64,000 nt of DNA. It comes from Thermodesulfobacteriota bacterium (GTDB taxonomy: Bacteria; Desulfobacterota; Desulfobacteria; Desulfobacterales; JARGFK01). The position numbers and the translations under genes are program-made. A model generated the notes under the pieces. It saw only the letters and a list, made by a program, of their open reading frames with translations. It was not told where the DNA came from and made no database searches. The stretch spans positions 66,163 to 130,162 of the forward strand of contig JBFLWU010000007.1 of assembly GCA_040757625.1 (NCBI GenBank), in the 5' to 3' direction. Each line of letters begins with the position of its first letter. The first letter of the stretch is position 1. Positions 21,009-50,171 of the stretch are shown one piece after another.

Positions 21009-21503
21009 TTACTCCTGATGAAGGGCGGCAGCCTCCTTCTGGGCGGTTGAAAGCCTTTTGGCGGCATCCTTCTTCTTGGACTGGCTCAAACGGTCCGCAT
21101 CGATAAAAGCGACCGCCTTGACCTCGCAGAATCGCGCACACTGGGGGTCTCCGCCGCACAGGTCGCATTTCAGAACGGCCTTATCGATGGTGCTGTAATT
21201 CCTGGCGCCGAAGGGACAGACCGTCACGCAGGAGCGGCAGCCGATGCACTTTTCATAATCAATCACCACAAACCCGTCGCGCTCGTCGCGGGACGTTGCC
21301 TTAACCGGGCAGACGCTGATGCAGGGCGCGTCCTCGCACTGCTGGCAGGTCATGGGAACATACAGGCCTTCGGCTTCCCACTTCACCACCTTGATGCGGC
21401 TGCGGGCAGGGTTTGAAACCCCGTGGTGGGATACCGAACAGACCAGCTCGCACAGCCGGCAGCCGGTACATTTCTGATAATCTATCTTTAGGACTTTCTC
21501 CAT
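21009..21503 (-). CDS. 4x[4Fe-4S]-type ferredoxin subunit (AorA / DmsB-like electron-transfer subunit of AOR)
   Basis: Four Cys clusters (CTGCRLCELVC, CQQCEDAPC..C, CIGCRSCVTVC, CDLCGG..C..C). It lies immediately downstream of aor. Confidence 0.85.
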   Translation of the reverse strand: MEKVLKIDYQKCTGCRLCELVCSVSHHGVSNPARSRIKVVKWEAEGLYVPMTCQQCEDAPCISVCPVKATSRDERDGFVVIDYEKCIGCRSCVTVCPFGARNYSTIDKAVLKCDLCGGDPQCARFCEVKAVAFIDADRLSQSKKKDAAKRLSTAQKEAAALHQE

Positions 21504-21522
21504 TGTTTTCCTCCTTTACAAC

Positions 21523-23463
21523 TTATAAGAGATGGGACGGTTCCTTGTCCAGACCCAGGCGTTTTAATGTCTCCGGAGTGGGCACGCCGTTTTTGTCCCA
21601 GCCGTGATGGGCATAAAATTCGTCGATCATTTTTGCGAATTTTTTACGGTCGATTTTGGCTCCGATGACATCAGGCGCCCCCCGCAGACACGGCTCGTCA
21701 AAGTAACGATGGTTGAGCATATCGCCTTTTTTCAAGTCGTTGCGCGTCAACCCCTCCCGCAGATTGAACAACCGTTCGATATTGTTGCATCGTTCGGCGA
21801 TGTCCCATATGTCCTTGGGAGTCAGCTCCAGACCGGTATTGTAATACAGCACCTTGGGCCAATCCTCGAAATTCGGCAAAGTCGCCCCTAAAAAGGTTGT
21901 GTGATATTTGCAGATTCCCAGGCAGTCGACCGCCATGTAGCAATTCTCCTGCCAGAAAACCTGCCAGGGCTTGCCGATATATTCGGTATGCTCCGAACTT
22001 AAAGGACCGTCGTAGGGGACGGGGTTGCTGTATATCTTGCGCAAGACCTCTTCGGGGAGATGATACAGATCGATGGCCGGCCGGCTTCTCAGGTGATCGG
22101 ATCCCCGGGATGCGGTGGCGATATTCAGGGCCAGCCCGGGGGTGGCTCTTTCGTCTGAATGCAGGTTGTTCATGCCTTTGACCTGGATAAGGTAGTCAAA
22201 GGAATTCTTTCCGATCTTTTCCGACGCCGGGATGCCGCCGTCGGCCAGCGTATCCCCCAGCCAGCCGTCCCGGAAGCAGATGCGCCGAACCATCTCCAGC
22301 AGGGCTTCGTCATTGCCGAAGCGCAGTTCCAGACCGTCCGTCTCCTTGGTTGTGAGAATGCCCAGTTCGAAAAGTTCCATGGCCCAGGCAATCATGCTGC
22401 CGATCTCCAGATTGTCCACGCCCCACTGGTTCACCAGATGGTTGCCGGTCAGGACCGTCACGGCGCTTTTGCAATCAGGCTCACCGCCGAAGGCCCCCTG
22501 GGAGGTGTACTCCGGGCCTTCGTCATATTTCCCGGCATAAGGCCCCGTGGGAATTTTATACTTGGCGCGGCAGTGTACTTGGCAGGCGAAACAGCCGGTC
22601 ATATGGTGCGGCCCCATGGTTTCGGTGCAGATCTCGTCAATGCGCTCGGGCTCGATATCGTCGGCGTATTCGCACTGATTGTATTGGAAATTGCGGGTCC
22701 TGACGCCGCCCCAGGAATTGGTGGCGCCCCAGATAAACGGCGTCCCCAGGGTTCCCTGGGTTTGATTGACCTTGGCGCTGGTGATCTGGTCGATGAAGCG
22801 CTTGTTGTACTCCAGGGCATCGATGGGATGGGCGATTTTGATGTCCATGGTTCCCCGGGCGGCAATCGCCTTGAGATTTTTTGACCCCATCACCGCTCCC
22901 ATGCCGGTTCTGCCGCCGGAATTCTTGATGCCCGTCATGACGTTGGCAAACCGGACCAGATTCTCGCCGGCCGGACCGATCACCAGGCTTTTGATATCCT
23001 CGTCATCCAGTTCCTTGCGGATGGCCCACTGGGTTTCCGTGGTGGTCAGCCCCCAAAGATTGGCGGCGTCTCTAATTTCGATTGCGCCGTTATGGATCCA
23101 GAGATATACGGGCTTCTTGGCTTTTCCCTTGATGACCAGGTGATGAAATCCCGCCCAGGCCATTTCCGGCGCAAAGAAACCGCCCATATTGCAGCTTCCC
23201 AGCAGGTTGGTCAGGGGAGATTTTGCCATGACATGGGTCCGGGCGGTTGCCGATGCACAGGTCGCCGTCAGAATGCCGCCGCTGACCATTATGACGTTTT
23301 TGGGACCCAGGGGGTCCACGCCCTTCTTGGTGTGGTTATACAGCAGGTAGGCGTCCAGTCCCCGGCCGCCGAGAAATTTTCTGCGAATTTCCACCGGGAT
23401 CGGTTTGATTTCAATCTCTCCGCTGGTCAGATCGATATATGCAATCTTTCTATTTAAGGCCAT
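21523..23463 (-). CDS. aor: tungsten-type aldehyde:ferredoxin oxidoreductase family protein
   Basis: AOR N-terminus (IAYIDLTSGEI...FLGGRGL), and GMGAVMGSKNLKAI and RGSDHL motifs. The ATG at 23463 has RBS AAGGAGG. The track ORF start at 23613 is a 50-codon upstream extension. Confidence 0.9.
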   Translation of the reverse strand: MALNRKIAYIDLTSGEIEIKPIPVEIRRKFLGGRGLDAYLLYNHTKKGVDPLGPKNVIMVSGGILTATCASATARTHVMAKSPLTNLLGSCNMGGFFAPEMAWAGFHHLVIKGKAKKPVYLWIHNGAIEIRDAANLWGLTTTETQWAIRKELDDEDIKSLVIGPAGENLVRFANVMTGIKNSGGRTGMGAVMGSKNLKAIAARGTMDIKIAHPIDALEYNKRFIDQITSAKVNQTQGTLGTPFIWGATNSWGGVRTRNFQYNQCEYADDIEPERIDEICTETMGPHHMTGCFACQVHCRAKYKIPTGPYAGKYDEGPEYTSQGAFGGEPDCKSAVTVLTGNHLVNQWGVDNLEIGSMIAWAMELFELGILTTKETDGLELRFGNDEALLEMVRRICFRDGWLGDTLADGGIPASEKIGKNSFDYLIQVKGMNNLHSDERATPGLALNIATASRGSDHLRSRPAIDLYHLPEEVLRKIYSNPVPYDGPLSSEHTEYIGKPWQVFWQENCYMAVDCLGICKYHTTFLGATLPNFEDWPKVLYYNTGLELTPKDIWDIAERCNNIERLFNLREGLTRNDLKKGDMLNHRYFDEPCLRGAPDVIGAKIDRKKFAKMIDEFYAHHGWDKNGVPTPETLKRLGLDKEPSHLL

Positions 23464-23464
23464 T

Positions 23465-23737
23465 TTAACGTTCCTCCTTTGAAGCCAATTTTTCTGCGGC
23501 TGCTTTTTGCGCGATCTTGCGGTTGACGTCCCAGACCGGCCCGCGGATCCGCGGAAAATCGGGCCGGATCCATGCCACCCGAAATTCCAGGCCGCAGACC
23601 GGGCACTTGACATGATCGGATCCGGCCGTCGGCTCCAAACGCCCCATGCAGCTGGGATTGTGGCATCGGAACTTGCCGTAGGTCCGCGTCTTTCGCAGAC
23701 TCTCAGCCGCCGAAACTTTATCTTTCTCGATTGCCAT
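23465..23737 (-). CDS. small zinc-ribbon protein, translationally coupled to aor
   Basis: CHNPSC...CPVCG motif. Its stop TAA (23465-23467) is 1 nt from the aor ATG, and the aor RBS lies inside its 3' end. Confidence 0.5.
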   Translation of the reverse strand: MAIEKDKVSAAESLRKTRTYGKFRCHNPSCMGRLEPTAGSDHVKCPVCGLEFRVAWIRPDFPRIRGPVWDVNRKIAQKAAAEKLASKEER

Positions 23738-24029
23738 GATTGTCTCCTTTCAATATTGATTCAAAACATTAACATTCGTATTGCCATAAAGACTTTCTGA
23801 CTTTAGCAGGATGATTGATAGACTGGGCGAAAGGCACAAGGCGCACGGCGTACGGAAAAAGCGCATCCCCTCTTTCCTTGAACCGTGGGTCCCTATCCGT
23901 TAGCCATATTTGCCCACTGCTTACTGCCTGTTATTCACTTCTCCCCAATCCCTCTAACCCGCGACCTGCAACCCGTAACGCGTCATTATTATTTACTCGT
24001 TGCTGTTCCCCCTGTACCCAGATCCCTTC

Positions 24030-24560
24030 CTACGGGGCCATCCGCTTAATCGCCTCCATATACTTCTTTTTCTTGCAGCGCGGGCAGGTGGACAAGAGCG
24101 CCGCGATCTCTTTGCGACTTTCCAGGTTCACCAGATATTCCAATTCTTTTTTCGGCATCAGATACCCGCCGCAATCCGGGCACGTGACCGCATAGCGGGT
24201 ATGCCCGCGCTGCAGCATATACGCTCTAAGGTCCGTCATAAAACTTTGAAACAACACCCCGCTAGGGCAGTAAAACGTGCATTCTTCGCAGGTCAGGCAG
24301 AACCAGAAGGCCTCGTCGCCGACTTTGTCGGGTTCAAACAGGATCCGCTCCACAATCGCCCGGGACGACCGGCCGTAATCGTATCGACCGTAAAGATTTA
24401 CCATCGGACAAACGGCAGAGCATTTGCCGCACTCTAAACACAGGTTGAGGCGATAGTCGCTTTTGAATTTCTCGATGCTGCCCCGCTCAAATACCGGTAT
24501 CTGTTTTTTAGCTTGCGATTTCATAATCTTTAGGTGTTTAGCCTGAAGACTGCAGGCCAT
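24030..24560 (-). CDS. HdrC-like 2x[4Fe-4S] protein with a C-terminal zinc ribbon
   Basis: CLECGKCSAVCP and CLTCEECTFYCP, plus CPDCGG...CPRC. An alternative start exists at 24524. Confidence 0.7.
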   Translation of the reverse strand: MACSLQAKHLKIMKSQAKKQIPVFERGSIEKFKSDYRLNLCLECGKCSAVCPMVNLYGRYDYGRSSRAIVERILFEPDKVGDEAFWFCLTCEECTFYCPSGVLFQSFMTDLRAYMLQRGHTRYAVTCPDCGGYLMPKKELEYLVNLESRKEIAALLSTCPRCKKKKYMEAIKRMAP

Positions 24561-24694
24561 TGTTATTGCCTTGTCTTTCGGTTCACATTACCACGATGTC
24601 CGTTGTTTGCTGTCAGTTGTTCGTTGAAACCCTGCTTCGGACAACTGACTTTCAGCCAATCTCTTTCAGCCTTCAGTCTATTTACCTCCAGCCT
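24561..24694. repeat. intergenic heptad-word palindromic element between hdrA-like and hdrC-like genes
   Basis: The left end tttagcctgaagactgcagg (reaching into the 5' end of the longer hdrC-like ORF) matches the right end ctttcagccttcagtctatttacc. There is an internal 12-bp stem gtcagttgttcg / cggacaactgac. Confidence 0.6.
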
Positions 24695-26401
24695 TTATGT
24701 CCGATGCCCCTCCATGCCGGCGCCCACCATGGCCAGGATCTGCTCGTCCGTGAACCCTTTTAACTGCAATGCGCCGCTGAGGCACGATGCTGCGCATAAG
24801 CCGCACCCCTTGCATTCGGTCGAGTTTACCCGGGCGATCCGCACGGTTCCGCCCTCGGAATTTCTGGATTCAATCCAGCCTACCGCGCCGAAGGGGCATA
24901 TTTCAACGCACCGGCCGCAGGCTGAACACCGCAGGGGATTGACCTCGGACGTAAAGGCTTCGGTGACCACCTGCCGCCGGGCCATGGGAACCGCGGCCTT
25001 GGCCGCCGCCGCATACCCCTGGGCAACGCATTCCGAAATATCGGTGGGATACCGGGCGCAGCCCGCGATAAAAATCCCGTCGGCAGGAAACTCCACCGGT
25101 CGGAGCTTTTGATGGGCCTCCATAAAAAAGCCTTCATTGCCCAGCGGAATCTTCAGCATCCGGGACAGCTGCCGGTTATCCTTTGCCGGCACCAGCGGCG
25201 CCGTCAAAACCACCAAGTCGGTCTCCAGGGCAGCCTTTTTGCCCGTCAGTTCATGGATAACCGTTACCTTGCCGGCTTTATTTTGGGCGCCGGTTATCCG
25301 AGGCGGCTGCTCCCGGTTGAAGCGGATGAATTGCACCCCCAGGGAAAGCGCTTTCTGGTAATATTCCTCAAAGATCTTCCCGCAGGCCATCACATCCCGG
25401 TGCAGCACCCTGACTGAGGTTTCGGGCCGCCTTGACTTTATCAGGCTCGCGTTCTTCATGGCCGTTACGCAGCAGAAGCGGCCGCAATAGGTCCGATCCT
25501 GGCTGCGGGCACCCACGCAGTTGATCATGACGACCTGAGTAAAACCGTCATATTTATTTTTAAGACGCTCTTCCAGTTCAAGCTGGGTAATCACATTTGA
25601 GAAACGGCCATATCCCATCAGCCCGTGAGGTTTGAGTTCCTCTGCGCCCACCGCCACAATGATGGTGCCGATATTGAATTCTTCGTCCTGTCCATTCAAC
25701 CGCACAAGCGCCGTAAAGTTTCCGATAAATCCTTTGACGGCCGCCACCTCAGCCTGGAGGTGCACGCGAATGTTGTCATGCCGAGAGACCGCCTCGACCA
25801 GCGGCGTCAGCAACGCGGCGGCGGACTGATCGGACGGAAAAAGGATGTTGACGTTCTGCAAAAGCCCGCCCAGGCGGTTTTGCTTTTCAACGAGCTCCAC
25901 CCGGTAGCCCTGATTGGCCAGGGTCAGGGCGGCTGAAAGACCTGAAACGCCCCCACCGATAACCAGAGTAGCCGGTGTTACCGCCGTGGACTGGTCCTGC
26001 TGGGAGGTCAGCAGGCTGACCTTGGCCACCCCCATTCGAACCAGGTCCTTGGCCTTGGCGGTGGCTTCCACCGGCCGCCCCAGGTGAACCCAGGAGCAAT
26101 GCTCCCTGAGATTGACAAATTCAAAGAGATATTTATTCAGACCTGCCCGTTCGCAATTCTTTTTAAAAAGGGGTTCATGGGTCCGCGGGGTGCAGGAGGC
26201 CACCACCACCCGGTTGAGGTTCCGCTCTTTGATCTTATTGCGAATGGCGGAAAGACCGTCCTCTGAACAGGTATATAGATTCCCCATGGCGCAAACGACG
26301 TTGGGCAACGTTTCGGCATACCTTACCACCTCGGGCACGTTGACCGTACCCCCGATATTGGTTCCGCAGTTGCAGACAAAGACGCCGATTCTAAGAGACA
26401 T
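24695..26401 (-). CDS. hdrA: HdrA-like FAD/FeS protein (heterodisulfide reductase subunit A family)
   Basis: N-terminal IGVFVCNCGTNI, GGGVSGLSAAL FAD fold, and C-terminal ferredoxin CSACGRCVEICP / CKGCGLCAASC. The ATG at 26401 has a GGAG RBS. Confidence 0.85.
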   Translation of the reverse strand: MSLRIGVFVCNCGTNIGGTVNVPEVVRYAETLPNVVCAMGNLYTCSEDGLSAIRNKIKERNLNRVVVASCTPRTHEPLFKKNCERAGLNKYLFEFVNLREHCSWVHLGRPVEATAKAKDLVRMGVAKVSLLTSQQDQSTAVTPATLVIGGGVSGLSAALTLANQGYRVELVEKQNRLGGLLQNVNILFPSDQSAAALLTPLVEAVSRHDNIRVHLQAEVAAVKGFIGNFTALVRLNGQDEEFNIGTIIVAVGAEELKPHGLMGYGRFSNVITQLELEERLKNKYDGFTQVVMINCVGARSQDRTYCGRFCCVTAMKNASLIKSRRPETSVRVLHRDVMACGKIFEEYYQKALSLGVQFIRFNREQPPRITGAQNKAGKVTVIHELTGKKAALETDLVVLTAPLVPAKDNRQLSRMLKIPLGNEGFFMEAHQKLRPVEFPADGIFIAGCARYPTDISECVAQGYAAAAKAAVPMARRQVVTEAFTSEVNPLRCSACGRCVEICPFGAVGWIESRNSEGGTVRIARVNSTECKGCGLCAASCLSGALQLKGFTDEQILAMVGAGMEGHRT

Positions 26402-26692
26402 AATGCTCCGCCGTCCGAAAACCAAACTTTGGCTACCCCCGGAGGGGTTGTGCCCGGTTGGAATTTCATTTGATCATAAAATTCCAAACATCAAATTTTA
26501 AATATCAAAAAAATTCCAATGGCCAAACTCAGAAAAACGGCAGATGCTTTGCCTTTGAAAAGTTTTGGTCATTGAACATTACATTTTGAGATTTGTTTGT
26601 AATTTGTTTTTTGGAATTTGAAATTTTAAACTCCAAAATCCATAAACCGGGGTTTTTCTGCCGGTATAAATCTCCTGCAGAGCAAACCTCGA

Positions 26693-29392
26693 TCACTCCC
26701 TTGCCAGCAGTTCCGCCGCCCGGGCGGCCGCGGCCGATGCCCGGACCACCGAATCGGGCACGTCCATGGGCGACTGGCAGAACCCGCAGCTAAACACGCC
26801 CTCCCGGGTGGTGCCGAAAGGGCTGGTCAATCCCTGCGGGCTGACGATAAAACCGTAATCGTCGATTTCAATGCCCAGCTTTTGGGCAAGCGCAGCATTG
26901 CCGACACTCGGCATAAGCGCCTGGGCCAGAATGACCATGTCAAACTCCCGGGCCTCCAATTTCCGGTTGACGGTATCCTCGAAATGGACGACCGGATTAT
27001 GATTATCGCCGTTTTCCGTTATCCGGCCCGGCCGGGCGCGAATGTATTCAACCTTGTACTGGCTTTTGGCTCTCTGGATGTATTCCTGAAAGCCCTTGCC
27101 CACCGCCCGCATATCCATATAAAAGATGGTGGAAGACAGCTGCGGATAATGCTCCCGTGCCAGGACGGCCTCCTTGGTGGCGTGCATGCAGCAGACCGCG
27201 GAACAGTATTTTTGATGGCGGACATCCCGCGACCCCACACACTGGATAAAAGCCAGTTCTTTAGGCTCCCTTGCGTCCGACGGGCGTTTCAGATGTCCAT
27301 GGGTCGGTCCGGACGCGCAGATCATTCGTTCAAACTGCATGGCCGTAATCACGTTCGATAGTTTCCCCCAACCATATTCGGTCAGAGCGGAGATGTCGTA
27401 AAGATCAAAGCCGGTGGCCAGAATCACGGCGCCCACATCCAGCTCTACCGCCCGGTTCGCCTGCCGGAAGTTGACCGCCTGGGCCTTGCAGACTTTCATG
27501 CACTGATAACACTCTGAACAAATCCCGCAGGAGATGCAGCGTGCGGCCTCCGCCAGAACCTGCGCCTGGGTAAACCCCAGTTGGACTTCGGAAAAGTTTT
27601 TGCGCCGGCGGGCCGGTTTCAGCCGCGGCATCCGGTTGCGGGGTATGCGGTCATACCCGCCGGCGGGTATGTTCGGCGCCGCGTTCCACTGAATGTCGCG
27701 GTTTTCACGAAGGTCTGCACCGCGGATAAACCGATCGATGGAAATCGCCGCCTGTTTGCCGGCCTCGATGGCCTCGATGACCGTTTTCGGCCCGCTGACG
27801 GCATCGCCGCCGGCAAAGATATCGGGCTCATCGGTCTGCAGCGTAACGGGATCCACATTCATGGTGCCCCAGTCCGAAAGCGTGCAGGCGCATTCCGGAC
27901 CCAGGCAGGACCAATCGGATTCCTGACCGATGGCGGGGATGACCCCGTCCACTTTGAGGACAAATTCCGATCCTTCCAGCGCCACCGGGCGTCTGCGGCC
28001 GCCGGCATCCGGATCACCCAGTTTCATTTTGCGGCACGCGATGGCCCTGACCTTTCCGCCTTCCCCGATGATCCGGATTGGGCTCGTCAGGGTCAGAATT
28101 TCAATTCCCTCTTCGCGGCATTCCTCGATCTCCTCCGCATTGGCCGGCATCTCCTGAAGACTGCGGCGGTATATGATAAAAGGCTTTTTGGCACCGAGAC
28201 GCAGGGCCGTGCGGACAGTATCCATGGCGACGTTTCCGCCGCCGATCACCGCAATGCGCTTTCCGGCAAGGGAAATCGGTTTGCCGAGATTGACGTCCCT
28301 TAAAAAATCAACACCGGGAAACACCCCTTCCAGGTCTTCGCCCTCGATCTCCATCTTCTTGCATTCCTGGGCGCCGATGCCCAGAAAGACGGCGCGATAG
28401 CCCTGTCTGCGGATCTGTTCGATGGTAATGTCCCTGCCGACTTCCACCCCGGTCCGAATGTCGACGCCCATGTCCCGGAGGACCTGGATCTCGGCGGCAA
28501 TGACCTCTCTGGGCAGGCGATAGTCCGGGATGCCCACCGAAAGCATGCCGCCGGCAACCGGCAGTTTTTCCAAAACAGTCACCCCATACCCTTCCCGGGC
28601 CAGATAATAGGCGCAGGACAGTCCGGCCGGTCCCGAACCGATAACGGCGATCTTTTCGTCTTTAGCGGCTTTGATTTCAGGAACGTATCTTTTTTCTGCG
28701 TGAAGCTCCCTGTCCGCGACAAAACGCTTGATGGAATCGATGGCCACCGGCTCATCCAGCTCTCCGCGTGTGCAGGCCGATTCGCAGGGATGGTGACACA
28801 CCCGGCCGCAAACCGCCGGGAGCGGATTTTCTTCCTTGATCAGTTTCAGCGCTTCATCGAAACGGCCCTGGGCCGCCAGAGCGACATACCCCTGAACACT
28901 GATATGGGCCGGGCAAGCGGCCTTGCAGGGGGCTGTCCCCCTGCGGGTGACGGTAAAAGTAGACGGAACGGCCTGGGGAAAGAATTTATGGATGGCCTTG
29001 CGCCGACCCAGGCCCGCGTTGAAATGGTCACTGATCGTGACCGGGCATCCATCGATACAGTCGCCGCAGCCCACGCACTTGTCTTCGTCGATGTAGCGGG
29101 CCTTGCGAATAATGCGGGCCCTGAATTTTCCGGCCCGGCCGGTCAGGCCGTCGAGTTCCGAGTATGTCAGCAGCTTGATATTCTCATGGTTGGCGCATTC
29201 GATCATCTTGGGGGCCAGAATACACATGGCGCAGTCGTTGGTGGGAAAGGTTTTGTCCAGCTGCGCCATACGACCGCCGATGCTGGGGTTCTGCTCCACC
29301 AGGTAGACCTGTTTCCCCATGCCGGCCAGGTCGATGGAGGCCTGCATCCCTGCGATTCCGCCGCCGATGACCAGAACTGCATTGTGATTCAC
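26693..29392 (-). CDS. HdrA-like protein with an inserted GltD/NfnB-type NAD(P)H:FAD module (HdrL-type fusion)
   Basis: HdrA N-terminus (VLVIGGGIAGMQAS...NDCAMCILAPK) and C-terminus (FIQCVGSRD...YCSAVCCMHATKEA) flank NPLPAVCGRVCHHPCESAC, VIGSGPAGLSCAYYL, GIPDYRLP and FAGGD. Confidence 0.85.
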   Translation of the reverse strand: MNHNAVLVIGGGIAGMQASIDLAGMGKQVYLVEQNPSIGGRMAQLDKTFPTNDCAMCILAPKMIECANHENIKLLTYSELDGLTGRAGKFRARIIRKARYIDEDKCVGCGDCIDGCPVTISDHFNAGLGRRKAIHKFFPQAVPSTFTVTRRGTAPCKAACPAHISVQGYVALAAQGRFDEALKLIKEENPLPAVCGRVCHHPCESACTRGELDEPVAIDSIKRFVADRELHAEKRYVPEIKAAKDEKIAVIGSGPAGLSCAYYLAREGYGVTVLEKLPVAGGMLSVGIPDYRLPREVIAAEIQVLRDMGVDIRTGVEVGRDITIEQIRRQGYRAVFLGIGAQECKKMEIEGEDLEGVFPGVDFLRDVNLGKPISLAGKRIAVIGGGNVAMDTVRTALRLGAKKPFIIYRRSLQEMPANAEEIEECREEGIEILTLTSPIRIIGEGGKVRAIACRKMKLGDPDAGGRRRPVALEGSEFVLKVDGVIPAIGQESDWSCLGPECACTLSDWGTMNVDPVTLQTDEPDIFAGGDAVSGPKTVIEAIEAGKQAAISIDRFIRGADLRENRDIQWNAAPNIPAGGYDRIPRNRMPRLKPARRRKNFSEVQLGFTQAQVLAEAARCISCGICSECYQCMKVCKAQAVNFRQANRAVELDVGAVILATGFDLYDISALTEYGWGKLSNVITAMQFERMICASGPTHGHLKRPSDAREPKELAFIQCVGSRDVRHQKYCSAVCCMHATKEAVLAREHYPQLSSTIFYMDMRAVGKGFQEYIQRAKSQYKVEYIRARPGRITENGDNHNPVVHFEDTVNRKLEAREFDMVILAQALMPSVGNAALAQKLGIEIDDYGFIVSPQGLTSPFGTTREGVFSCGFCQSPMDVPDSVVRASAAAARAAELLARE

Positions 29393-29453: not shown

Positions 29454-29469
29454 GTTCATTATCGTGAAC
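29454..29469. promoter_or_regulatory. operator-like inverted repeat GTTCATTATCGTGAAC
   Basis: GTTCA-N6-TGAAC lies just downstream of a minus-strand TTGACA-16nt-TATTAT promoter candidate facing the hdr fusion gene. Confidence 0.55.
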
Positions 29470-29577
29470 AATATTTTCTTGAATAATATCAGTTTCCGCT
29501 GACCTGTCAAGAGAAAACTTATCATATAAAACCTTTTGAATCATGGTAAAATACGGCTTGCCCCGCTAAAAATAGTA

Positions 29578-29606
29578 TTGACAAAGAAATAAAACAATTG
29601 TAATAG
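29578..29606 (+). promoter_or_regulatory. sigma70-like promoter of iclR (TTGACA, 17 nt spacer, TAATAG)
   Basis: TTGACA lies at 29578-29583 and TAATAG at 29601-29606. Confidence 0.45.
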
Positions 29607-29617
29607 TTATAAAAAAA

Positions 29618-29633
29618 ATTCATCATGGTGAAC
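29618..29633. promoter_or_regulatory. operator-like inverted repeat ATTCATCATGGTGAAC
   Basis: This is the same (G/A)TTCA-N6-TGAAC motif. It lies between the -10 box and the iclR ATG (29635). Confidence 0.55.
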
Positions 29634-29634
29634 A

Positions 29635-30405
29635 ATGCCGCCGAAATATCTTGCACCGTCCGTAACCAAAGCGTTTCAGATTTTAAAACTGGTGACCAAA
29701 TCAGACCGGGGATTGAAAATCACCGACCTGTCCAAAGCGCTGGGAATCGGCAAAAGCACCGTTCATGGCATCACCGCCGCCCTTGAAGAGCTGGGCGCCA
29801 TCCTGCGCGACCCTGTCAGCAAACGGTATCGCCCGGGACTTACCCTTCTGGAACTGGGCAAATCGGCCCATTCCCAGTTCGATTTGAAAGATCTGGCCCG
29901 GCCGGTAATGGAAGACCTGATGGAAAACGCCCAGGAGTCTGTCTTCCTGGGGGTGCTCAACGGGGAGCACATCACGATCCTGGATATCGTCGAATCCCGC
30001 AACGACCTGAAAATCACTTCCCCGGTGGGTACCGCCCTTCCGCTGATGGCCGGCGCAGCCGGAAAAGTTTTTCTGTCGGAAATGAACGCGGCGCAACGAT
30101 CCAGAATTATTGAATCCAGGGGGATTCCCCGATATACGGATAATACCGTCACCGATCCTCAGCAGTATCTTTCAGAAATTGAAAACGTTCGAAAGACGGG
30201 GTGGGCCACTGATTATGAAGAATATATACCCGGGGTCCGGGCCGTGGCCGCGCCGATCCGTTCAAGCCGTCATTTCAGCGCCGCCATCTGGGTGGTGGGG
30301 TTTAAAATGACCCTGGATGATGATAAAATGAAAATGCTGGCAGCGGCCACCACGGATGCGGCTGAACGCATCAGCCGCAAGTTCGAGGAACAGCAGCTTT
30401 TATGA
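29635..30405 (+). CDS. IclR-family transcriptional regulator
   Basis: N-terminal wHTH (SVTKAFQILKLV...LSKALGIGKSTVHGI) and a C-terminal IclR effector domain. Confidence 0.9.
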   Translation: MPPKYLAPSVTKAFQILKLVTKSDRGLKITDLSKALGIGKSTVHGITAALEELGAILRDPVSKRYRPGLTLLELGKSAHSQFDLKDLARPVMEDLMENAQESVFLGVLNGEHITILDIVESRNDLKITSPVGTALPLMAGAAGKVFLSEMNAAQRSRIIESRGIPRYTDNTVTDPQQYLSEIENVRKTGWATDYEEYIPGVRAVAAPIRSSRHFSAAIWVVGFKMTLDDDKMKMLAAATTDAAERISRKFEEQQLL

Positions 30406-30689
30406 AAATAAAAATCGAATCATTGGGTCTGCCGCTTCTTTCCAGACTGATCGGGAAAAAGACCGAAATCGATTTTCCCGGCAAAACGGTCGCGGACCTT
30501 GTCGCCCATCTGGTGAAACGCCATGGCCAAGAGATGCAAAAGGCGCTCCTGGATAAAGACGGCAGGCTGGATCTGACCATTCAGGTCATGATGAATGATG
30601 AGGGAATTCTACACCGGGAACAGTATCCAAAGCGGATTCTGAAAGACGGCGACAAGGTGATATTCATGATTTTGGTCGGCGGGGGCTAA
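30402..30689 (+). CDS. MoaD/ThiS-family ubiquitin-like sulfur-carrier protein
   Basis: 95 aa ending in ...ILVGGG (C-terminal Gly-Gly). Its start overlaps the iclR stop (ATGA). Confidence 0.72.
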   Translation: MKIKIESLGLPLLSRLIGKKTEIDFPGKTVADLVAHLVKRHGQEMQKALLDKDGRLDLTIQVMMNDEGILHREQYPKRILKDGDKVIFMILVGGG

Positions 30690-31495
30690 TCCCCATAGGG
30701 AATGCTGGAACGCGTGTGTACCTTTAAATCCCTGACCCCCTGAATCCCTTTCACCGTTGCAAGGATCTTCCGCACCAGGGTTTCCTCCTGAGATTCCGGA
30801 ACCGTGGTTGCGATATGAACAATGCCGTCTTTAGCAGCCACTTCTATATCGGGCTTCAGGTCTACCAGCAACGCCTTGACCTCGGCGGACAAGACCAGAT
30901 CATCCATCCCTTTCTGCGATTCAGGGGTTGTTTGAAAATCTTTCAGGCCGACGGTATTGCAGATGATTTCCGCTGCATCGTCAACGGAAATTTTCTTGAT
31001 ATGAATGACCAGGTCATACAGGCGCGGATCCCCGGTATCAATCCCGTAAAGGTGTAGGCTCCACCTCCTTCTTTCCTCGTCGTCAAGTTCAAGCATCCGC
31101 CGGGCCTCTTTTTCGGAAATGCCGTGACGCTCCTTTTCGAGTTTGACGCGATCTTCCATTTCAGCAAGGATTCTCACCTTAAGAACGTGAGAAACGCCCT
31201 TGAGAAAAAAATGCCCGGCAAGACCGTGATAGACGACACGATCCTTTTGGAATTGTTGCAGCAGGGCCTTCTGGATATATGCCACATATTTTTCTTTCCG
31301 GTATCCGAAGCGATCTAAAATCGACGGCGCATCGTGAATGGCCCGCACCAGCTTGATCTCCGGTATATTAAAGTCTTTGGAGGCTTCCACCAGTATGTCA
31401 CGGGCAATGCACGCGTAGCCCAGTCTTTTGGCAACCTTTTCAGCCACTTCTTTTCCGCGGCTGTACGACCCCCTGGAGATGGTAACAATCGACAT
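30686..31495 (-). CDS. cytidylate-kinase-like family protein with a BON-like C-terminal domain (paralog 1)
   Basis: MSIVTISRGSYSRGKEVAEKVAKRLGY. It is roughly half identical by eye to the product of 37628-38428. Confidence 0.65.
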   Translation of the reverse strand: MSIVTISRGSYSRGKEVAEKVAKRLGYACIARDILVEASKDFNIPEIKLVRAIHDAPSILDRFGYRKEKYVAYIQKALLQQFQKDRVVYHGLAGHFFLKGVSHVLKVRILAEMEDRVKLEKERHGISEKEARRMLELDDEERRRWSLHLYGIDTGDPRLYDLVIHIKKISVDDAAEIICNTVGLKDFQTTPESQKGMDDLVLSAEVKALLVDLKPDIEVAAKDGIVHIATTVPESQEETLVRKILATVKGIQGVRDLKVHTRSSIPYGD

Positions 31496-31773
31496 GGTGT
31501 CCCCCTGTAATAATTTTAGTCCCTTTACCCCAATCGAGCGAAAGCCCTGGGTGCCCAGCTTCAAGGCGTCCGAGGGCGAAGCCGTAGTATACTACTGCGA
31601 GTCCTCGGCAACGCAGAAGATGGGCGCCCAGGACTTTCCCAAAGGGTAAACAAAATGGAGACTTTTCTTAAAATTATATCGCTTTGAAAATAGCATGATG
31701 AGATCCGTTCAAATAGCCTAATAATATTTATTTGTTAAAAAGGTCCTCTATTTTGTTTACGCTCATTTGGGGT

Positions 31774-37627: not shown

Positions 37628-38428
37628 TTACGTCTCAAAAGGAACCACACTCACCCTCACCTCTCTTATTCCATCAACAGCTTTCAAGGCTTGTTTGATC
37701 TCGGCCCCGGCCTTCTCTTCCAGAGAGAGAGCCGTTTCAATTCTCACGAGAACAACCGCGTTCTGGCAACTGACCTGCGATGAAGGGTACCGTTCAATGA
37801 TGGCTGCCTTGGCAGAGGCCGCCACACTGAGGTCTTCCATTTTCTGCTGCGATTCGGGTGTCGTCTGAAAACGTTTCAGGCTGACCTTGTGACAAATAAT
37901 ATCTACGGCATCCTCCAGGGTCAGCTGGCCGATGTTGATGACCATGTCGTAGAGGCTGGGATCGGATGTTTCGATTCCGTAGAGCTGCTGGCTCCACTTT
38001 CGGCGCTGCTCATCTATCTTGTGAATATATTTTGCCGCTTCATCCCTTGAAAACTTGTTCCGTTTCATGACGATCTTGATGCGCTCCGCCAGGGACGCTA
38101 TGATCCTTACTTTGAGGACATGGGAAACATCCTGAACGAAAAAATGCCCGGCAAATCCATGATAGACGACATTGTCTTTCTTTAAATTTTTTAAAACGGC
38201 CGCCTGGATGTACGCGATATATTTTTCTTTTCTAAAAAGGATGTTGTCCAGAAAAGTGGGAGAGTCATAGATGGCATGAAACAGCTTTATTTCAGGAATA
38301 TTGAAATCTTTGGATGCTTCAATCAGAATCTCCCTGGAGATGCAATCATAGCCAAGTCTCTCGGCTACGTTTTCAGCGATTTCTTTTCCATGGCTATATG
38401 AACCGCGTGATATCGTAATGACCGCCAT
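37628..38428 (-). CDS. cytidylate-kinase-like family protein with a BON-like C-terminal domain (paralog 2)
   Basis: MAVITISRGSYSHGKEIAENVAERLGY, collinear with 30686-31495. Confidence 0.65.
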   Translation of the reverse strand: MAVITISRGSYSHGKEIAENVAERLGYDCISREILIEASKDFNIPEIKLFHAIYDSPTFLDNILFRKEKYIAYIQAAVLKNLKKDNVVYHGFAGHFFVQDVSHVLKVRIIASLAERIKIVMKRNKFSRDEAAKYIHKIDEQRRKWSQQLYGIETSDPSLYDMVINIGQLTLEDAVDIICHKVSLKRFQTTPESQQKMEDLSVAASAKAAIIERYPSSQVSCQNAVVLVRIETALSLEEKAGAEIKQALKAVDGIREVRVSVVPFET

Positions 38429-38589
38429 AATTCGGAGCCCTCACCGGAAGTTGGATGGACGCTTGTTGCAACTGTGGTTATTTCAATTAATTCGACGTGT
38501 TGGTGTGATTTCCGTCAAGAAATACAGACAATGGCATTCAAAGTCAAGATAAACTTGAAACCAAGAAGGTACCACAATTTACTCATAAC

Positions 38590-38635
38590 AAAAGCCCGCT
38601 GATTTTTTATCAAACGAACGCATCAACGGGCTTTT
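38590..38635 (-). terminator. hairpin terminator downstream of the thiolase gene
   Basis: The minus-strand 14-bp stem AAAAGCCCGTTGAT / ATCAGCGGGCTTTT has one G-U pair and is followed by GTTATGAG. Its U-tract is weak. Confidence 0.5.
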
Positions 38636-38661
38636 GTGAAAGATTGTTTTGGCCTTTTATA

Positions 38662-39852
38662 CTAACCGATTTTCAATACCAGTCCGGCGGCCGTATCGCC
38701 GGCCGCACAACCGCCCAAGAGCAGGTAGCCGCCCCCGGCCATGGCGGTCTCTTCAATCCCCTCGATCAGCAGGCGCCCGGCTGTCGGCGCCTGGGGATGC
38801 CCAAAAATCAGGGAGCTGCCGTAATTGTTGAAGCCGTTGACATCGATGGCCATCTGCTTGGCCATGTAGATGTCATTGGCCGCAAAGGGGTTGTGGGTTT
38901 TGATGGTCTTAACATCCTTTACGGTGATGCCGGCCTTGTCCAGCGCCATCTGCGCCGCCGGAACCACCGCCATGGCCATGAACCCTTTTTTGGTGCGGGC
39001 ATATCCGAAAGATATGATCTGAACCTCAATCTTGGGATCGGTGCTCAGCTCCCGGGCTTTTTCCCGGGTGGTGACCACCATGCCGCAGTTGCCGTCGGCC
39101 GGATGGGTCTGTGAACCGAAGGTATGGACACCCTCAGGCAGGACGGGCCTTAGCCCGGCCAGGCCTTCGGCGGTAGTAGGCATAACACCTTCGTCATCTT
39201 CCACCAGTTTGACTTCCTTTTTGGAAATCCTGACCTCCGCCGGAAACAGATAGCGTTTCTTGAAGGCCTTGTCGTCGGCGAAAGCGTCCATGTACTGCTC
39301 ATAGCGTCGGAGTGTAACGGCGTCGCATTCCTGCCGGGTGATTCCCGACTCTTTGGCCACGTTTTCCGCGGTTTGAATCATTGCGTTTTTAGCCCAGGGG
39401 TCCTGGTTGAAGTTGTCCATGAGCCAGTTTTCGGAAATGACTTCGCCCCCCGGTCCGTTGGGATTGGGCCATATCGCGTGGGGACCGTTGGAGCAGCGGT
39501 CGGTCATCAGGCAGAAGGCCTTCCCGTAAAGACCGGTCTCGACACCCATCGCCGCCTGGAAAATACCGGTGGTGGAAGTGGTGCAGGCCTGGCTCAGGAG
39601 TACCCCGGGTATGCCTGTCGCGCCCATTAGGGCCGCCGCCCAGGGACCGCCGTAAAATCCATGCTTCTGGTGTATCGTGATTCCCAGAATGAGATAATCG
39701 AACATCTTGGGATCCCACTTCTTGTGCGCAAACCATCGCTTGGAGGTGTTTGCACCCAGCTCGATAGAGTTTTCGTTTGCCATGGTCCCCTGCCATCTGG
39801 AAAAGGGAGTGCTGTAATAGCCCCGGTACGGTATGAACGCTTTTGTCAACAT
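38662..39852 (-). CDS. thiolase-family protein (acetyl-CoA acyltransferase-like)
   Basis: Active-site contexts LSQACTTSTTG, GHPQAPTG and GGCAAGD. The ATG at 39852 begins MLTKAFIPYRG. Confidence 0.8.
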   Translation of the reverse strand: MLTKAFIPYRGYYSTPFSRWQGTMANENSIELGANTSKRWFAHKKWDPKMFDYLILGITIHQKHGFYGGPWAAALMGATGIPGVLLSQACTTSTTGIFQAAMGVETGLYGKAFCLMTDRCSNGPHAIWPNPNGPGGEVISENWLMDNFNQDPWAKNAMIQTAENVAKESGITRQECDAVTLRRYEQYMDAFADDKAFKKRYLFPAEVRISKKEVKLVEDDEGVMPTTAEGLAGLRPVLPEGVHTFGSQTHPADGNCGMVVTTREKARELSTDPKIEVQIISFGYARTKKGFMAMAVVPAAQMALDKAGITVKDVKTIKTHNPFAANDIYMAKQMAIDVNGFNNYGSSLIFGHPQAPTAGRLLIEGIEETAMAGGGYLLLGGCAAGDTAAGLVLKIG

Positions 39853-40013
39853 GATGTTCTCCTCTCTCCGAAATAGAATCAAGTCATTCAGTGCTTCTCG
39901 CAAATATTTCGAAAATAGAATCCAAGGATTCGGGGGGCAAGGGTTCGGCTACCCCAATTTTCATTATTACACTTACCCCCTTAAACCCCGGACCCTTTGA
40001 ATCCTATTGGCTA

Positions 40014-41597
40014 TCAACAGGCATCGCTCCAGCGGCCGTACTTATCCCGCAGGATGCGGTGCAGAATTTTCCCGGTGGGGGTCCGGGGCATATCCGCATC
40101 TTTGATAAACTCTATGGATTTAGGCCGTTTGAAACCGGCCAGTTCGCCCTTGCAGAAAATCATGATCTCATTTTTCAGATCTTCAGTGGGCTCAAATCCC
40201 TCGTGCAGCACCACAACCGCTTTAATGGATTCCCCCCACTTCTCATCCGGAACGCCGATCACGGCGATATCCTTGATGGCCCTGTGGCAGCCGATGGAGC
40301 ATTCGACTTCCGAGGGATAGACGTTTTCGCCGCCGGTGATGATCATGTTGGCCTTTCGGTCCACCAGCACGTAATACCCGTCCGCATCCCGCCGGGCCAT
40401 ATCGCCCGCCGAGGACCAGCCCCCCTCAAAGGCGGCCTTTGTTTTTTCCGGTTCTTTCAGATATTCCTTGAACAGCATGGGCGTCCGGTAGAAAAGTTCG
40501 CCCACCTCGCCGTCCGGGACCTCTTGCCGGTTTTCATCCAGGAGTTTGATCCGGTCGGTGCCGAAAATTTCTCGGCCGATGGAACCCAGTTTCTTAAACT
40601 GGTCCTCGGGCCTGAGCAGGGTCACCAGTCCGCCTTCTGTGCTGCCGTAAGCTTCCCAGAGCTCGGCGTTTTTAAAGTACGCCATGATGGCCAGCTTTAA
40701 ATCTTTGCGGGCCGGGGCGGAAGAAATCAGCAGTTGGCGGATGGAAGAAACATCGATGTTTTTTTTAACCTTATCCGGCAGGGCCAGCAGCATGATATAA
40801 TGGGTCGGAACCAGGGAGGTAAAGGTGATCTTGTATCGATCAATGGTCCGCAGCAGGTCTTCGGGATCGAAACTCACCATGTTGTAAACAAACACCGGGG
40901 CTGTTACCAGGGTGTAGGGAAACGAATAGAAAATGGAGTTGACGTGGCACATGGGCATCACCAGCATGACCTTGTCCGTGGGCCGGACCCCCATGTTGAT
41001 GTTGTTGAGAACGTACTCGGCGTGATAGCTTTCATGGGTGCGCACCACCCCCTTGGGCCGGCCGGTTGTCCCTGACGTGTACATGATCGTCCAGCTGTCG
41101 CCGCCGTCGACCATGGTATCCGGTTCCTCCGGCGATGATTTTTTCAGCCACTCTTCATACCCCACATAGCCTTCCGGTACCGGGCCGTCTCCCAGATAGA
41201 TGTAGCTGCCCCGGGAAACTGGAAGTTTTTCTCTGATGCCATCGACCAGTTCCACGAAAGGTTTTTCTACGATAAAGGCCTTGCACTCTGAATGGTTGAG
41301 AATATATTGAATATCCGGTCCGGTCAGCCGGAACATGACGGGAACGACAATCTGGCCGCCCTTGGCGCAGCCGGCATAGATGTCCATCCACTCGCCCCGG
41401 TTATAGGCGATGACCGCAACCGGATCCCGGTAGCCGGCACCCAGATTCCTGAGTCCGTTGGCTAGGCGGCAGGCTCTTTCGTTCCACTCCCGAAAGGTAT
41501 ACTCCCTGAACTTGTCCTGCCACCCCAGTTTGTCGGGGTAGTTCAACGCATTCATCTTGAGGACTGTTCCCGCATGCATCCATCTGCTCAGCGCCAT
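40014..41597 (-). CDS. AMP-forming acyl-CoA synthetase/ligase
   Basis: AMP-binding motif YTSGTTGRPKGV, and the GDMARRDADGYYVLVDRK and PRTPTGKI motifs. Confidence 0.9.
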   Translation of the reverse strand: MALSRWMHAGTVLKMNALNYPDKLGWQDKFREYTFREWNERACRLANGLRNLGAGYRDPVAVIAYNRGEWMDIYAGCAKGGQIVVPVMFRLTGPDIQYILNHSECKAFIVEKPFVELVDGIREKLPVSRGSYIYLGDGPVPEGYVGYEEWLKKSSPEEPDTMVDGGDSWTIMYTSGTTGRPKGVVRTHESYHAEYVLNNINMGVRPTDKVMLVMPMCHVNSIFYSFPYTLVTAPVFVYNMVSFDPEDLLRTIDRYKITFTSLVPTHYIMLLALPDKVKKNIDVSSIRQLLISSAPARKDLKLAIMAYFKNAELWEAYGSTEGGLVTLLRPEDQFKKLGSIGREIFGTDRIKLLDENRQEVPDGEVGELFYRTPMLFKEYLKEPEKTKAAFEGGWSSAGDMARRDADGYYVLVDRKANMIITGGENVYPSEVECSIGCHRAIKDIAVIGVPDEKWGESIKAVVVLHEGFEPTEDLKNEIMIFCKGELAGFKRPKSIEFIKDADMPRTPTGKILHRILRDKYGRWSDAC

Positions 41598-41705
41598 TGC
41601 ATTGCTCCTTTAAATTCCTGAATCCTGCATAAAATTGTCGAGAATCGGATCACCATGGCGGCCCTGTTGATATTAACTTATCCCTTGTTGTCAACCCAAA
41701 AAGGG

Positions 41706-42485
41706 TTAGGCGCCCATCGCAAAAAGAGCCGCGCCCACAGCACCGGTGAACTGGGGATATTCCGGCACTTGTACCGTGCGGTTTAAGGCCTCTTCGAGCA
41801 TGGTTACCATATACGGATTGTGGGCAACCACGCCGCCGGTCATAACCACGTGACCGGCCAGTGTGTCCATTTCCATGATTCGCTTGATGACCGAAGCGAA
41901 AAGGCCTTTGACAATATCCGGCACTTTTTTCCCCAGCCTGATTTTTTCCAGCACCTCGGTTGCGGTGAAAACCGTACAGTAGCTCCCCAGTTCGACCATC
42001 CGGGTGGATTCCCTGGCCAGGACGTCCATATCCTCCAGGGGGATATCCAGCCGCAGGGACATCTCCTCCAAAAAGGCGCCGGTGCCGGCGGCACACTTGC
42101 GATTCATCTTGAAATTCAGGCGGCGTCCCCTATCGTCAAGCCGGATGATCTTGTTATCCTGTCCACCGATATCGATGATGGTGATGTCCATGGGAAAATA
42201 GTGAAAACACCCTTTGGCATGGCAGCTGATTTCAGTCTTGGTATCCCGCGTGAGGTCGACATTCCTGCGGCCGTATCCGGTGGCGACCGCGGCGCCGATA
42301 TCCCCGACCGCATGCCCTGCCATCTCCAAAGCCTCCCGCAGACAGTACTGGGCCGTTGCCGCAAAATCCGTACCGGATCTTGCCACGCTGCGGCCAATGA
42401 TGTTTCTGCCGGCATCCAGAACGGTCACCTTGGTGCGCGAAGCCCCCACGTCAATTCCAGCAAAAACTTGCTGCCGGCTCGTCAT
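41706..42485 (-). CDS. BcrAD/BadFG/HgdC-type ATPase (activase of 2-hydroxyacyl-CoA dehydratase-family enzymes)
   Basis: GIDVGASRTKV, DIGGQDNK and a Cys-containing helix region. The ATG directly abuts the stop of the upstream HGD-family gene. Confidence 0.9.
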   Translation of the reverse strand: MTSRQQVFAGIDVGASRTKVTVLDAGRNIIGRSVARSGTDFAATAQYCLREALEMAGHAVGDIGAAVATGYGRRNVDLTRDTKTEISCHAKGCFHYFPMDITIIDIGGQDNKIIRLDDRGRRLNFKMNRKCAAGTGAFLEEMSLRLDIPLEDMDVLARESTRMVELGSYCTVFTATEVLEKIRLGKKVPDIVKGLFASVIKRIMEMDTLAGHVVMTGGVVAHNPYMVTMLEEALNRTVQVPEYPQFTGAVGAALFAMGA

Positions 42486-43730: not shown

Positions 43731-43882
43731 CAGCACCTGTCCTGTTCTGTCTTTTAGCCCGTTGGTGAAACAAACATGTATCCGATTGCCAGCCCCGCCA
43801 ACGGCTGGATGCGAAAGTACGTTGGCAGGCACCGGGAAAGCCGCAGGCGGGGCGGCTTTAGACGCAGTTTTACAATAACCTG

Positions 43883-44827: not shown

Positions 44828-44919
44828 GACCCCCTTGTTGTTTAGGTATATGATCTATTGAAACCGTTGAGCTGTATTTATTGTAAGGCACGATCAAACC
44901 GGCGACTGACGCCGCTTTT

Positions 44920-45363
44920 TCAGCCGTTCGTTTCTAAAATGCCAAAAGCATTGGCGTCCAGAAGCTTGATGCCGTTTTTCTGCAATATCTTGATGGCCTT
45001 GTCGTTGTCGCTGAAGCGAAATATCATGACGGCCTTTCCGGCTGAAAACCCGACGAACGCATAGGTGTAAAGAACATTGACATGGGCATCCCGCAGCGGT
45101 TTGAGCATTGCCGCCAGGCTGCCGGGCTTATCTTCGACCTCGGCCGCGACCACTTCAGTAACCATCGCCGGCATCTGCATCTCCATGAGAATCCGCCGGC
45201 TGGTGGTAATGTCGGAGACCAGAAGCCGCAGCTGTCCGAATGCACCGGTGTCCACCAGGTTTAAAGCCCGCAGGTTGATACCGGCATCGCCCAGCGCCTT
45301 GGTAACTTCGTAAAGGCGTCCCGGTGAATTCTCAATTGAAATGGTAATCTGTTTTAATTTCAT
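44920..45363 (-). CDS. tandem ACT-domain protein
   Basis: Two ACT-like repeats (ITISIENSPGRLYEVTKALGDAGINL and AAEVEDKPGSLAAMLKPLRDAHVNV). Confidence 0.72.
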   Translation of the reverse strand: MKLKQITISIENSPGRLYEVTKALGDAGINLRALNLVDTGAFGQLRLLVSDITTSRRILMEMQMPAMVTEVVAAEVEDKPGSLAAMLKPLRDAHVNVLYTYAFVGFSAGKAVMIFRFSDNDKAIKILQKNGIKLLDANAFGILETNG

Positions 45364-45608
45364 GAACCCTCCACGCAGATCTGCTTAAATAAAATTCATC
45401 GTAATAATTGCAACACAAGTTTTTTCGAAATACGCTGTAAGATACTATAACAAGGGCCTGCCGGCATGATGTGCAATAGTTGTGATAAGTACATTAAATT
45501 AATGAAAAAATATAGTAAATCCCTGGCGATCCGTCAAGCAAAAAGGACAAAAGAAAAACCGCCCTCGGGGATACTCCCCGACCGGACCGGCGATTTTCGG
45601 CAAGGAAA

Positions 45609-49080: not shown

Positions 49081-49110
49081 ATTTTCAATCCTTTGAGGAT
49101 AATCCCTTTA

Positions 49111-50107: not shown

Positions 50108-50171
50108 GATTGATTCTTACTGGCATTTCAATTATAAATGAACCGGATCGAAGCTGATATAACAGCATATT

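Follow-up and report, generated by a model that had tools for sequence, protein, structure and literature searches.

Several members of the IclR family of transcriptional regulators have been described in detail. Escherichia coli IclR, which combines an HTH_IclR with an IclR_C domain, reportedly represses its own gene and acts on aceBAK through a proximal and a distal (approximately −110) box, with the IclR box being a TGGAAA-type 7-1-7 palindrome. In the KdgR, PcaR-PcaU-PobR and BhcR systems the regulator gene is divergent from a catabolic operon, and two of these proteins, PcaU and PobR, are activators binding upstream of their promoters. IclR-family proteins are commonly tetramers, and both Thermotoga maritima TM0065 and TtgV form dimers and tetramers, which would allow bridging of two operators. 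Here we describe a 16-bp palindrome in a 64,000-nt stretch of DNA from a Thermodesulfobacteriota bacterium (contig JBFLWU010000007.1, positions 66,163 to 130,162, hereafter the window), which is found between an iclR-family gene and a divergent operon encoding a HdrA-type fusion protein and a tungsten AOR-family enzyme (target operon 1), and again about 20 kb away, upstream of an operon encoding two ferredoxins and a MetV-like protein with a DUF5981 domain (target operon 2). We consider it probable, based on the sequence comparisons described below, that the adjacent IclR-family regulator uses this palindrome as its operator and would act as repressor on three transcription units (Table 1).

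Table 1. Operator sites, predicted promoters and genes of the IclR-linked loci in the window
Feature	Position (strand)	Sequence or product	Characteristics
Operator O1	29454-29469	GTTCATTATCGTGAAC	23.5 bits; 13-nt gap from P_hdr -10 box; ~+7 to +22 of minus-strand transcript
Operator O2	29618-29633	ATTCATCATGGTGAAC	21.6 bits; 10-nt gap from iclR -10 box; 1 nt before iclR ATG
Operator O3	49639-49654	GTTCATAATAGAGAAC (minus strand GTTCTCTATTATGAAC)	20.3 bits; 12-nt gap from P_fd -10 box
Operator O4	49791-49806	GTTCACCATGGTGAAC	23.9 bits; perfect palindrome; distal partner, 152 bp upstream of O3
P_hdr (predicted)	29483-29510 (-)	-35 TTGACA 29510-29505, 16-nt spacer, -10 TATTAT 29488-29483	Extended TG; 11/12 consensus matches
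P_iclR (predicted)	29578-29607 (+)	-35 TTGACA 29578-29583, 18-nt spacer, -10 AATAGT 29602-29607	10/12 consensus matches
P_fd (predicted)	49667-49695 (-)	-35 TTGACG 49695-49690, 17-nt spacer, -10 TATAGT 49672-49667	10/12 consensus matches
iclR	29635-30405 (+)	IclR-family regulator, 256 aa	PF09339 HTH_IclR 48.6 bits (cut-off 22); PF01614 IclR_C 138.5 bits (cut-off 24)
ThiS/MoaD-like gene	30402-30689 (+)	ThiS/MoaD-like protein	Pfam ThiS; overlaps iclR stop codon by 4 nt
Target operon 1	21009-29392 (-)		Divergent from iclR
HdrA/GltD-like fusion	26693-29392 (-)	899 aa	First gene of target operon 1
HdrA-like gene	24695-26425 (-)	HdrA-like FAD/Fe-S protein	Target operon 1
HdrC-like gene	24030-24560 (-)	HdrC-like Fe-S protein	Target operon 1
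Conserved ORF	23465-23737 (-)	90 aa	Target operon 1
AOR gene	21523-23463 (-)	Tungsten AOR-family enzyme, 646 aa	Target operon 1
Ferredoxin subunit gene	21009-21503 (-)	Four-cluster ferredoxin subunit	Last gene of target operon 1
Target operon 2	48008-49602 (-)	Ferredoxin-ferredoxin-DUF5981	~20 kb from iclR locus
Fer4_11 ferredoxin gene	49111-49602 (-)	Four-cluster ferredoxin	Target operon 2
Second ferredoxin gene	48676-49080 (-)	134-aa ferredoxin	Target operon 2
DUF5981 gene	48008-48679 (-)	DUF5981 (MetV-like) protein	Target operon 2; MetV domain 113 bits

The palindrome has the consensus GTTCAYYATNRTGAAC, in which GTTCA and TGAAC arms flank a central region with a conserved A-T. The pattern RTTCA-N6-TGAAC gave five strand-matches in the window, compared to 0.23 expected, and none of 100 dinucleotide-preserving shuffles of the window contained five or more, placing the frequency of the motif far above random. 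A 16-bp weight matrix (20.7 bits) was constructed from 21 sites, all located in genomes other than that of the window, and this matrix returned exactly four sites in the window (20.3–23.9 bits), with no further position scoring above 13.2 bits and a maximum of 17.3 bits over 50 shuffles. The four sites form two pairs, O1/O2 (164 bp) and O3/O4 (152 bp). A preliminary description of the same DNA had reported three sites, and these (O1, O2 and the perfect palindrome O4) were all found where it had placed them, but the total is four, as it had missed O3, which first surfaced once mismatches to the consensus were allowed. Other window positions matching the consensus with two mismatches were in coding DNA or scored low, including those upstream of an ACT/HGD operon (45363–45608), and were rejected as additional sites. 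When the window was combined with 66 loci fetched from other genomes and metagenome bins (designated by L-numbers, 554 kb including the window), all matches of at least 17 bits were located in iclR/AOR intergenic regions or upstream of ferredoxin-ferredoxin-DUF5981 operons, with a single exception. This exception (ATTCTTCATTATGAAC, L063 12554–12569, 17.5 bits) is intergenic, 73 nt upstream of an operon for C_GCAxxG_C_C, DUF362 and polyferredoxin proteins and about 6 kb from iclR, and may mark this operon as a further part of the regulon in that lineage.

Three of the four sites directly follow predicted promoters, with O1, O2 and O3 each covering roughly positions +4 to +22 of the predicted transcript. 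The sites start 10–13 nt after the −10 box, which, taking the promoters as predicted, is the classical position for a repressor. The −35 block of P_hdr (TGTCAAG) and the −35 hexamer of P_iclR are invariant in an alignment of seven lineages, and P_fd is conserved in L016 and L018. At iclR, O2 overlaps the Shine-Dalgarno-like bases GGTGA, a possible ribosome-binding site. The earlier suggestion of a repressor with autoregulation is thus supported by the site positions relative to the predicted promoters, and the distance of 12–14 nt from the −10 box given for O1 and O2 holds approximately, with the actual gaps being 13 and 10 nt. It was also correct that O4 lies upstream of target operon 2, but this site is not promoter-proximal, since 189 nt separate it from the ATG at 49602 and approximately 125–140 nt from the predicted P_fd, both of which are downstream; the proximal operator is O3, which ends 37 nt before the same ATG. 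A consensus scan did not detect a convincing divergent promoter for O4 itself in the window. The start codon assigned to the first ferredoxin gene by the open reading frame (ORF) finder, ATG 49644, falls inside O3, and we take ATG 49602 as the true start because it has GGAG in front of it and coincides in the alignment with the start of the L016 ortholog.

The protein encoded by the iclR gene has the N-terminal HTH_IclR winged helix and C-terminal IclR_C effector domain which define the family, with full-length matches to solved IclR proteins. The closest solved structures are T. maritima TM0065 (1MKM, E=5.6e-27) and TtgV (2XRN/2XRO, E=1.5e-20), both matched over nearly the full length, with phmmer scores of only 98 and 77 bits, respectively, which indicate a distant relationship. 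The TtgV tetramer differs in covering one 42-bp operator, compared to the two 16-bp palindromes approximately 150–165 bp apart in the window. KdgR, PcaR-PcaU-PobR and BhcR were the best profile matches, but none of the named NCBIfam equivalogs was reached (bits/cut-off: BhcR 146.6/350, KdgR 125/275, PcaR/PcaU 117.7/285, IclR 115.4/380, AllR 77.6/406), and as all scores are far below the cut-offs, the protein falls outside all of them. It shares the family, a palindromic operator, a site at its own promoter and the combination of a proximal with a distal box at one target with E. coli IclR, but differs in the operator sequence, in having sites downstream of the −10 box rather than overlapping the −35 box, and in its targets, which are a tungsten oxidoreductase/HdrA system and not the glyoxylate shunt. 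Many homologs with at least 60% identity were present in Desulfobacterota metagenome bins, and a search of a representative-genome collection gave only relatives at 22–27% identity. The helix-turn-helix recognition region (G37–E52) is nearly invariant among ten IclR orthologs sharing the motif, which fits a shared DNA specificity across lineages. The ThiS/MoaD-like gene overlapping the end of iclR is probably co-transcribed with it, given the 4-nt overlap, and the pair recurs in L003 and L005; its product presumably acts in pterin-cofactor maturation.

Genomic context was compared for nine IclR clusters with 60–87% identity to the window protein. The iclR gene adjoins the orthologous AOR646-ferredoxin operon in all nine and is divergent from it in eight, while in L010/L011 iclR is the last gene of an operon opposing the AOR646-ferredoxin operon. 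The motif was present in the iclR/AOR intergenic region of every locus, with the upstream site always perfect, and the iclR-proximal site ended 1 nt before the ATG in all loci except L010 and L063, with a position relative to the ATG like that of O2 found in L003–L009, L013–L015, L061, L062, L065 and L066. Within the seven-lineage alignment (IclR 62–100% identical, mean column identity 63%), 13/16 columns of O1 and 10/16 columns of O2 were invariant; outside the sites this was 35/214 columns, most of which were the two −35 hexamers, parts of the −10 regions and the ATG. The AOR646 of L010 is 87% identical to the window AOR, although its IclR is only 62% identical. One of the database records, L004 (CP070676.1, labelled Dehalococcoidia), contains a run of N (7596–7694) directly beside a truncated hdr-like gene next to iclR, with sugar-nucleotide and methyltransferase genes beyond it, and has a taxonomy which conflicts with all other homologs; the run may be a scaffolding gap or a mis-join.

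Conservation of the distant ferredoxin operon was assessed in a metagenome scan with the DUF5981 protein of the window, which returned 45 loci. Three of these (L016, L018 and L020) are orthologous including the promoter region (85–88% identity), and all three have kept both sites, 151–153 bp apart and at matching distances from promoter and start codon. The counterpart of O3 is perfect in L016 and L020 and has one mismatch in L018, and L016 is syntenic with the window along its entire length, from a DctM gene via the ferredoxin operon to a HGD-D gene. The motif was absent, at a reporting cut-off of 13 bits, from the approximately 220 kb around 39 weaker DUF5981 matches (L022–L060; 33 full-length at 44–51% identity and 6 partial), and the two of these that were annotated (L027 and L030) represent genuine MetV, located between HdrA-like genes and metF. 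No iclR gene was found within 6 kb of the ferredoxin operons of L016, L018 and L020; a 256-aa ORF in L016 was considered as an IclR and rejected, since its sequence is unrelated.

The connection between the two target operons is most direct in L010/L011, where AOR538, two ferredoxins, DUF5981, EutA and IclR are encoded in one gene string, divergent from the AOR646-ferredoxin operon and separated from it by a region with two perfect sites 152 bp apart. The ferredoxin-ferredoxin-DUF5981 trio of L010 is 48–55% identical to that of the window, and hence L010/L011 bring together, behind the same operators, two modules that the window keeps at a distance of 20 kb, supporting the regulon link. In L010 the distal site has a divergent promoter of its own (TTGACA, 16-nt spacer, TATGAT), so that O4 may descend from the operator of a divergent promoter. 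The proposal made in the preliminary description, that the AOR/Hdr locus and the ferredoxin/MetV-like operon form one regulon, is therefore supported by the sites kept in L016, L018 and L020 and by the linkage in L010/L011, with the motif being conserved upstream of orthologs of both operons. Its choice of the adjacent IclR as candidate binder likewise gains support in silico from the Pfam family, the near-invariant recognition helix and the shared neighbourhood, which together suggest that this protein would bind the palindrome.

We propose that one IclR dimer binds each palindrome, and that the protein bound at approximately +4 to +22 would block open-complex formation or promoter escape, and at iclR would also mask the ribosome-binding bases. 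The units repressed would be the HdrA-fusion/AOR operon, iclR with the ThiS/MoaD-like gene (negative autoregulation) and the ferredoxin-ferredoxin-MetV-like operon. O4 would function as an auxiliary site, possibly bridged to O3 by an IclR tetramer; alternatively, it could belong to a divergent promoter, as in L010, either as an operator still in use or as what is left of one. Repression would be released by a small-molecule effector at the IclR_C domain. Several points weigh against this proposal. The promoters are predictions from the σ70 consensus only, the motif scan of the source genome was confined to the 64-kb window, and the iclR-proximal site is degenerate in L063 and L065. Furthermore, the IclR-anchored loci were retrieved via IclR, and co-occurrence of motif and iclR is thus partly true by construction. 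Looping is not specifically supported by the spacings of paired sites (149, 151, 152, 152, 153, 163, 164 in four cases, 167 and 168 bp), since the two groups of 149–153 and 163–168 bp share no helical phase.

A further such point is that IclR-family proteins can also be activators, PobR and PcaU being examples, and the protein could bind the motif mainly as activator or dual regulator, for instance activating P_fd when bound with effector at O4. O4 precedes the predicted P_fd start by approximately 125–140 bp and lacks a convincing divergent promoter of its own in the window, which would be consistent with this. However, the other three sites are 10–13 nt after strong −35/−10 pairs (10–11/12 consensus matches), a position at which bound protein should get in the way of RNA polymerase, and near-consensus TTGACA −35 boxes should need no activator. 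We therefore consider a mainly activating role unlikely.

It is less likely still that the palindrome is a genuine transcription factor site bound by another regulator, such as a CRP/FNR-type dimer, with the iclR neighbourhood being coincidental. The 5-N6-5 geometry is also that of CRP-type sites, the association with iclR in part reflects ascertainment, given the way in which the loci were retrieved, and the ferredoxin operons of L016, L018 and L020 lack iclR within 6 kb. Sites for CRP/FNR-type activators are 5-N6-5 or 5-N4-5 palindromes centred near −41.5 or −61.5, but these class I/II positions are not occupied here, as three of the sites are at approximately +4 to +22 and the fourth at approximately −138 from the predicted starts. 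No regulator gene other than iclR is common to all IclR/AOR loci, with TetR, GntR and two-component genes each present in single loci only, and the fixed site at the start of iclR in eight of nine lineages is a signature of autoregulation.

The palindromes could in principle act as RNA, as hairpins in the 5′ untranslated region (5′ UTR) or as a terminator, since O1, O2 and O3 are inside predicted 5′ UTRs, and O4 was flagged as terminator-like and folds in its context at −11.6 kcal/mol (z = −3.4). The alignment of 24 sites argues against this: variation is absent from three of the five arm pairs and the other two change only to mismatches (position 1, G to A; positions 5 and 12), there is no compensatory change in the arm pairs, and covariation is no better than in shuffles. 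The central A and T are conserved although they would be unpaired in a loop, the iclR leader does not fold into the hairpin (z = 0.17), the arms of the motif have only two G-C pairs, and O4 is upstream of the promoter and follows no gene on its strand. Conservation of sequence without conservation of pairing indicates a protein-binding DNA site and not an RNA hairpin, and leaves very little probability for a function as RNA. Finally, chance palindromes in the AT-rich intergenic DNA, which has many A/T runs here, are effectively refuted by the shuffle tests, the absence of a comparable match in approximately 500 kb of other sequence and the conserved islands in otherwise diverged spacers.

The genes of target operon 1 resemble those of the AorABC system of Aromatoleum, the class IV bifurcating WORs and BamB-I, in that they encode a WorL-type AOR, a WorS-type four-cluster ferredoxin and flavoprotein electron modules, accompanied by a ThiS/MoaD-like gene, and matching layouts are found among the multi-subunit tungsten oxidoreductases (PMC13328260). 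The electron module of the window is different, consisting of the HdrA/GltD fusion with HdrA-like and HdrC-like proteins instead of WorABC or AorC. The AOR is also less similar to BamB (4Z3W, 217 bits, partial match) than to classical AORs, with 1AOR (306 bits), 9MQX and 8C0Z (264 bits) being the best PDB matches, so that the enzyme is no closer to BamB than to these. With regard to the partners of class II benzoyl-CoA reductases, HdrA-like genes are present, and no NuoEFG-like or MvhD genes were found in target operon 1. The ORF listed for the AOR (696 aa) was over-extended, and alignment with orthologs places its start at 23463. It is directly preceded in most of the AOR646 loci examined by an ORF of 86–97 aa without a Pfam match, which is 70% identical in L010 and was not called in L014. 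There is no convincing intergenic terminator inside target operon 1, with a terminator-like hairpin located just after its last gene (20971–20952), and the gene order recurs in L003, L005 and L065.

The first gene of the IclR-linked AOR operon varies by lineage, and encodes either the HdrA/GltD fusion (884–899 aa), a FAD protein of 428–433 aa or a Fe-S protein of 337–341 aa (differing genes at 26693–29392 in the window, L007 6440–7726, L013 6441–7742, L061 3365–4378 and L063 4823–5848). As the AOR and ferredoxin are highly conserved, it appears that electron-transfer partners have been exchanged as modules. Downstream of iclR in L007, a FlpD/MvhD-like gene (8824–9255) was split by gene calling into two parts (66 and 52 aa), for which either an in-frame stop codon (perhaps for selenocysteine, in the manner of BamF-type proteins) or a frameshift could be the cause.

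The first ferredoxin of target operon 2 is a paralog of the ferredoxin subunit of the AOR, but at 40% identity not the close paralog that had been suggested. The third gene of this operon has the DUF5981/MetV domain of the MetV proteins from methylene-tetrahydrofolate reductases (MTHFR) of the MetFV-HdrABC-MvhD type. It differs from true MetV in lacking an adjacent metF, in its location behind two ferredoxin genes and in being associated with the IclR motif, of which true MetV loci have no match. Since the domain is present and there is no metF/MTHFR gene adjacent to it in the window, we refer to the protein as MetV-like rather than MetV. Homologs at 45–50% identity (L027 5845–7630 and L030 5974–7688) are encoded between genes for HdrA-like proteins or GltD-MvhD fusions and metF, and the occurrence of MetV relatives beside HdrA-type flavoproteins may provide a rationale for co-regulation with the HdrA/AOR operon.

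Some further features of the window were noted. Beyond O4, a cluster of TGTGCACA/TGCACA palindromic repeats (49917–49975) is followed after approximately 120 bp by a σ54-like promoter (TGGCAC-N5-TTGTA, 50092–50107), upstream of two genes without a Pfam match (50172–50828 and 51010–51669). L016, which is otherwise syntenic, lacks both genes and has a flavin-reductase gene immediately next to the ferredoxin operon in divergent orientation. The region 49917–51669 has the appearance of an enhancer-dependent unit that was inserted here. Between the two motif loci is an operon (37628–45363, minus strand) without a motif match upstream, which encodes an ACT-pair protein, an ApbA-type reductase, a 2-hydroxyacyl-CoA dehydratase-like HGD-D protein, a BcrAD/BadFG activator ATPase, an AMP-forming CoA ligase, a thiolase and a cytidylate-kinase-like protein. 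Its counterpart is located within approximately 1 kb after the iclR-thiS pair in L003 and is mostly present in L016; in the window it is separated from iclR by a second cytidylate-kinase-like gene (30686–31564) and a two-component segment. The right end of the window (59257–63931, minus strand) contains conserved housekeeping ORFs for L17, RpoA, S4, S11, S13 and a SecY-like protein, and hence the catabolic island abuts a ribosomal-protein cluster.

A literature search did not reveal a characterised regulator or operator for AOR/BamB-type operons, nor a description of this motif. The nearest published item is a microarray table for Geobacter metallireducens listing a benzoate-induced IclR gene (Gmet_2064) and an AOR (Gmet_1802) (PMC1924859), and regulators do not feature in a classification of tungsten oxidoreductases from 2026 (PMC13328260). 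The type of regulator and its logic, a negatively autoregulated repressor divergent from its target operon, are textbook; the value of the finding is in what is controlled, an uncharacterised AOR-family enzyme with HdrA-type partners, in a system which appears to be common in Desulfobacterota metagenomes. As a bolder and rather doubtful possibility, both loci may encode parts of one undescribed electron-bifurcating tungsten enzyme, in which a WorL/WorS-type AOR is wired to the HdrA/GltD fusion via a MetF-less MetV paralog and two extra ferredoxins, under control of an IclR tetramer bridging operator pairs approximately 150–165 bp apart. If true, this would define HdrA/MetV-coupled tungsten oxidoreductases as a new class, one that has a dedicated sensor and is widespread in sulfate-reducing Desulfobacterota. 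The defined operator provides a genome-wide handle for listing the genes of the system, including the MetF-less MetV paralog, and gives a testable functional link between the MetV-like module and the HdrA/AOR complex, while the effector of the sensor protein would reveal the physiological substrate.

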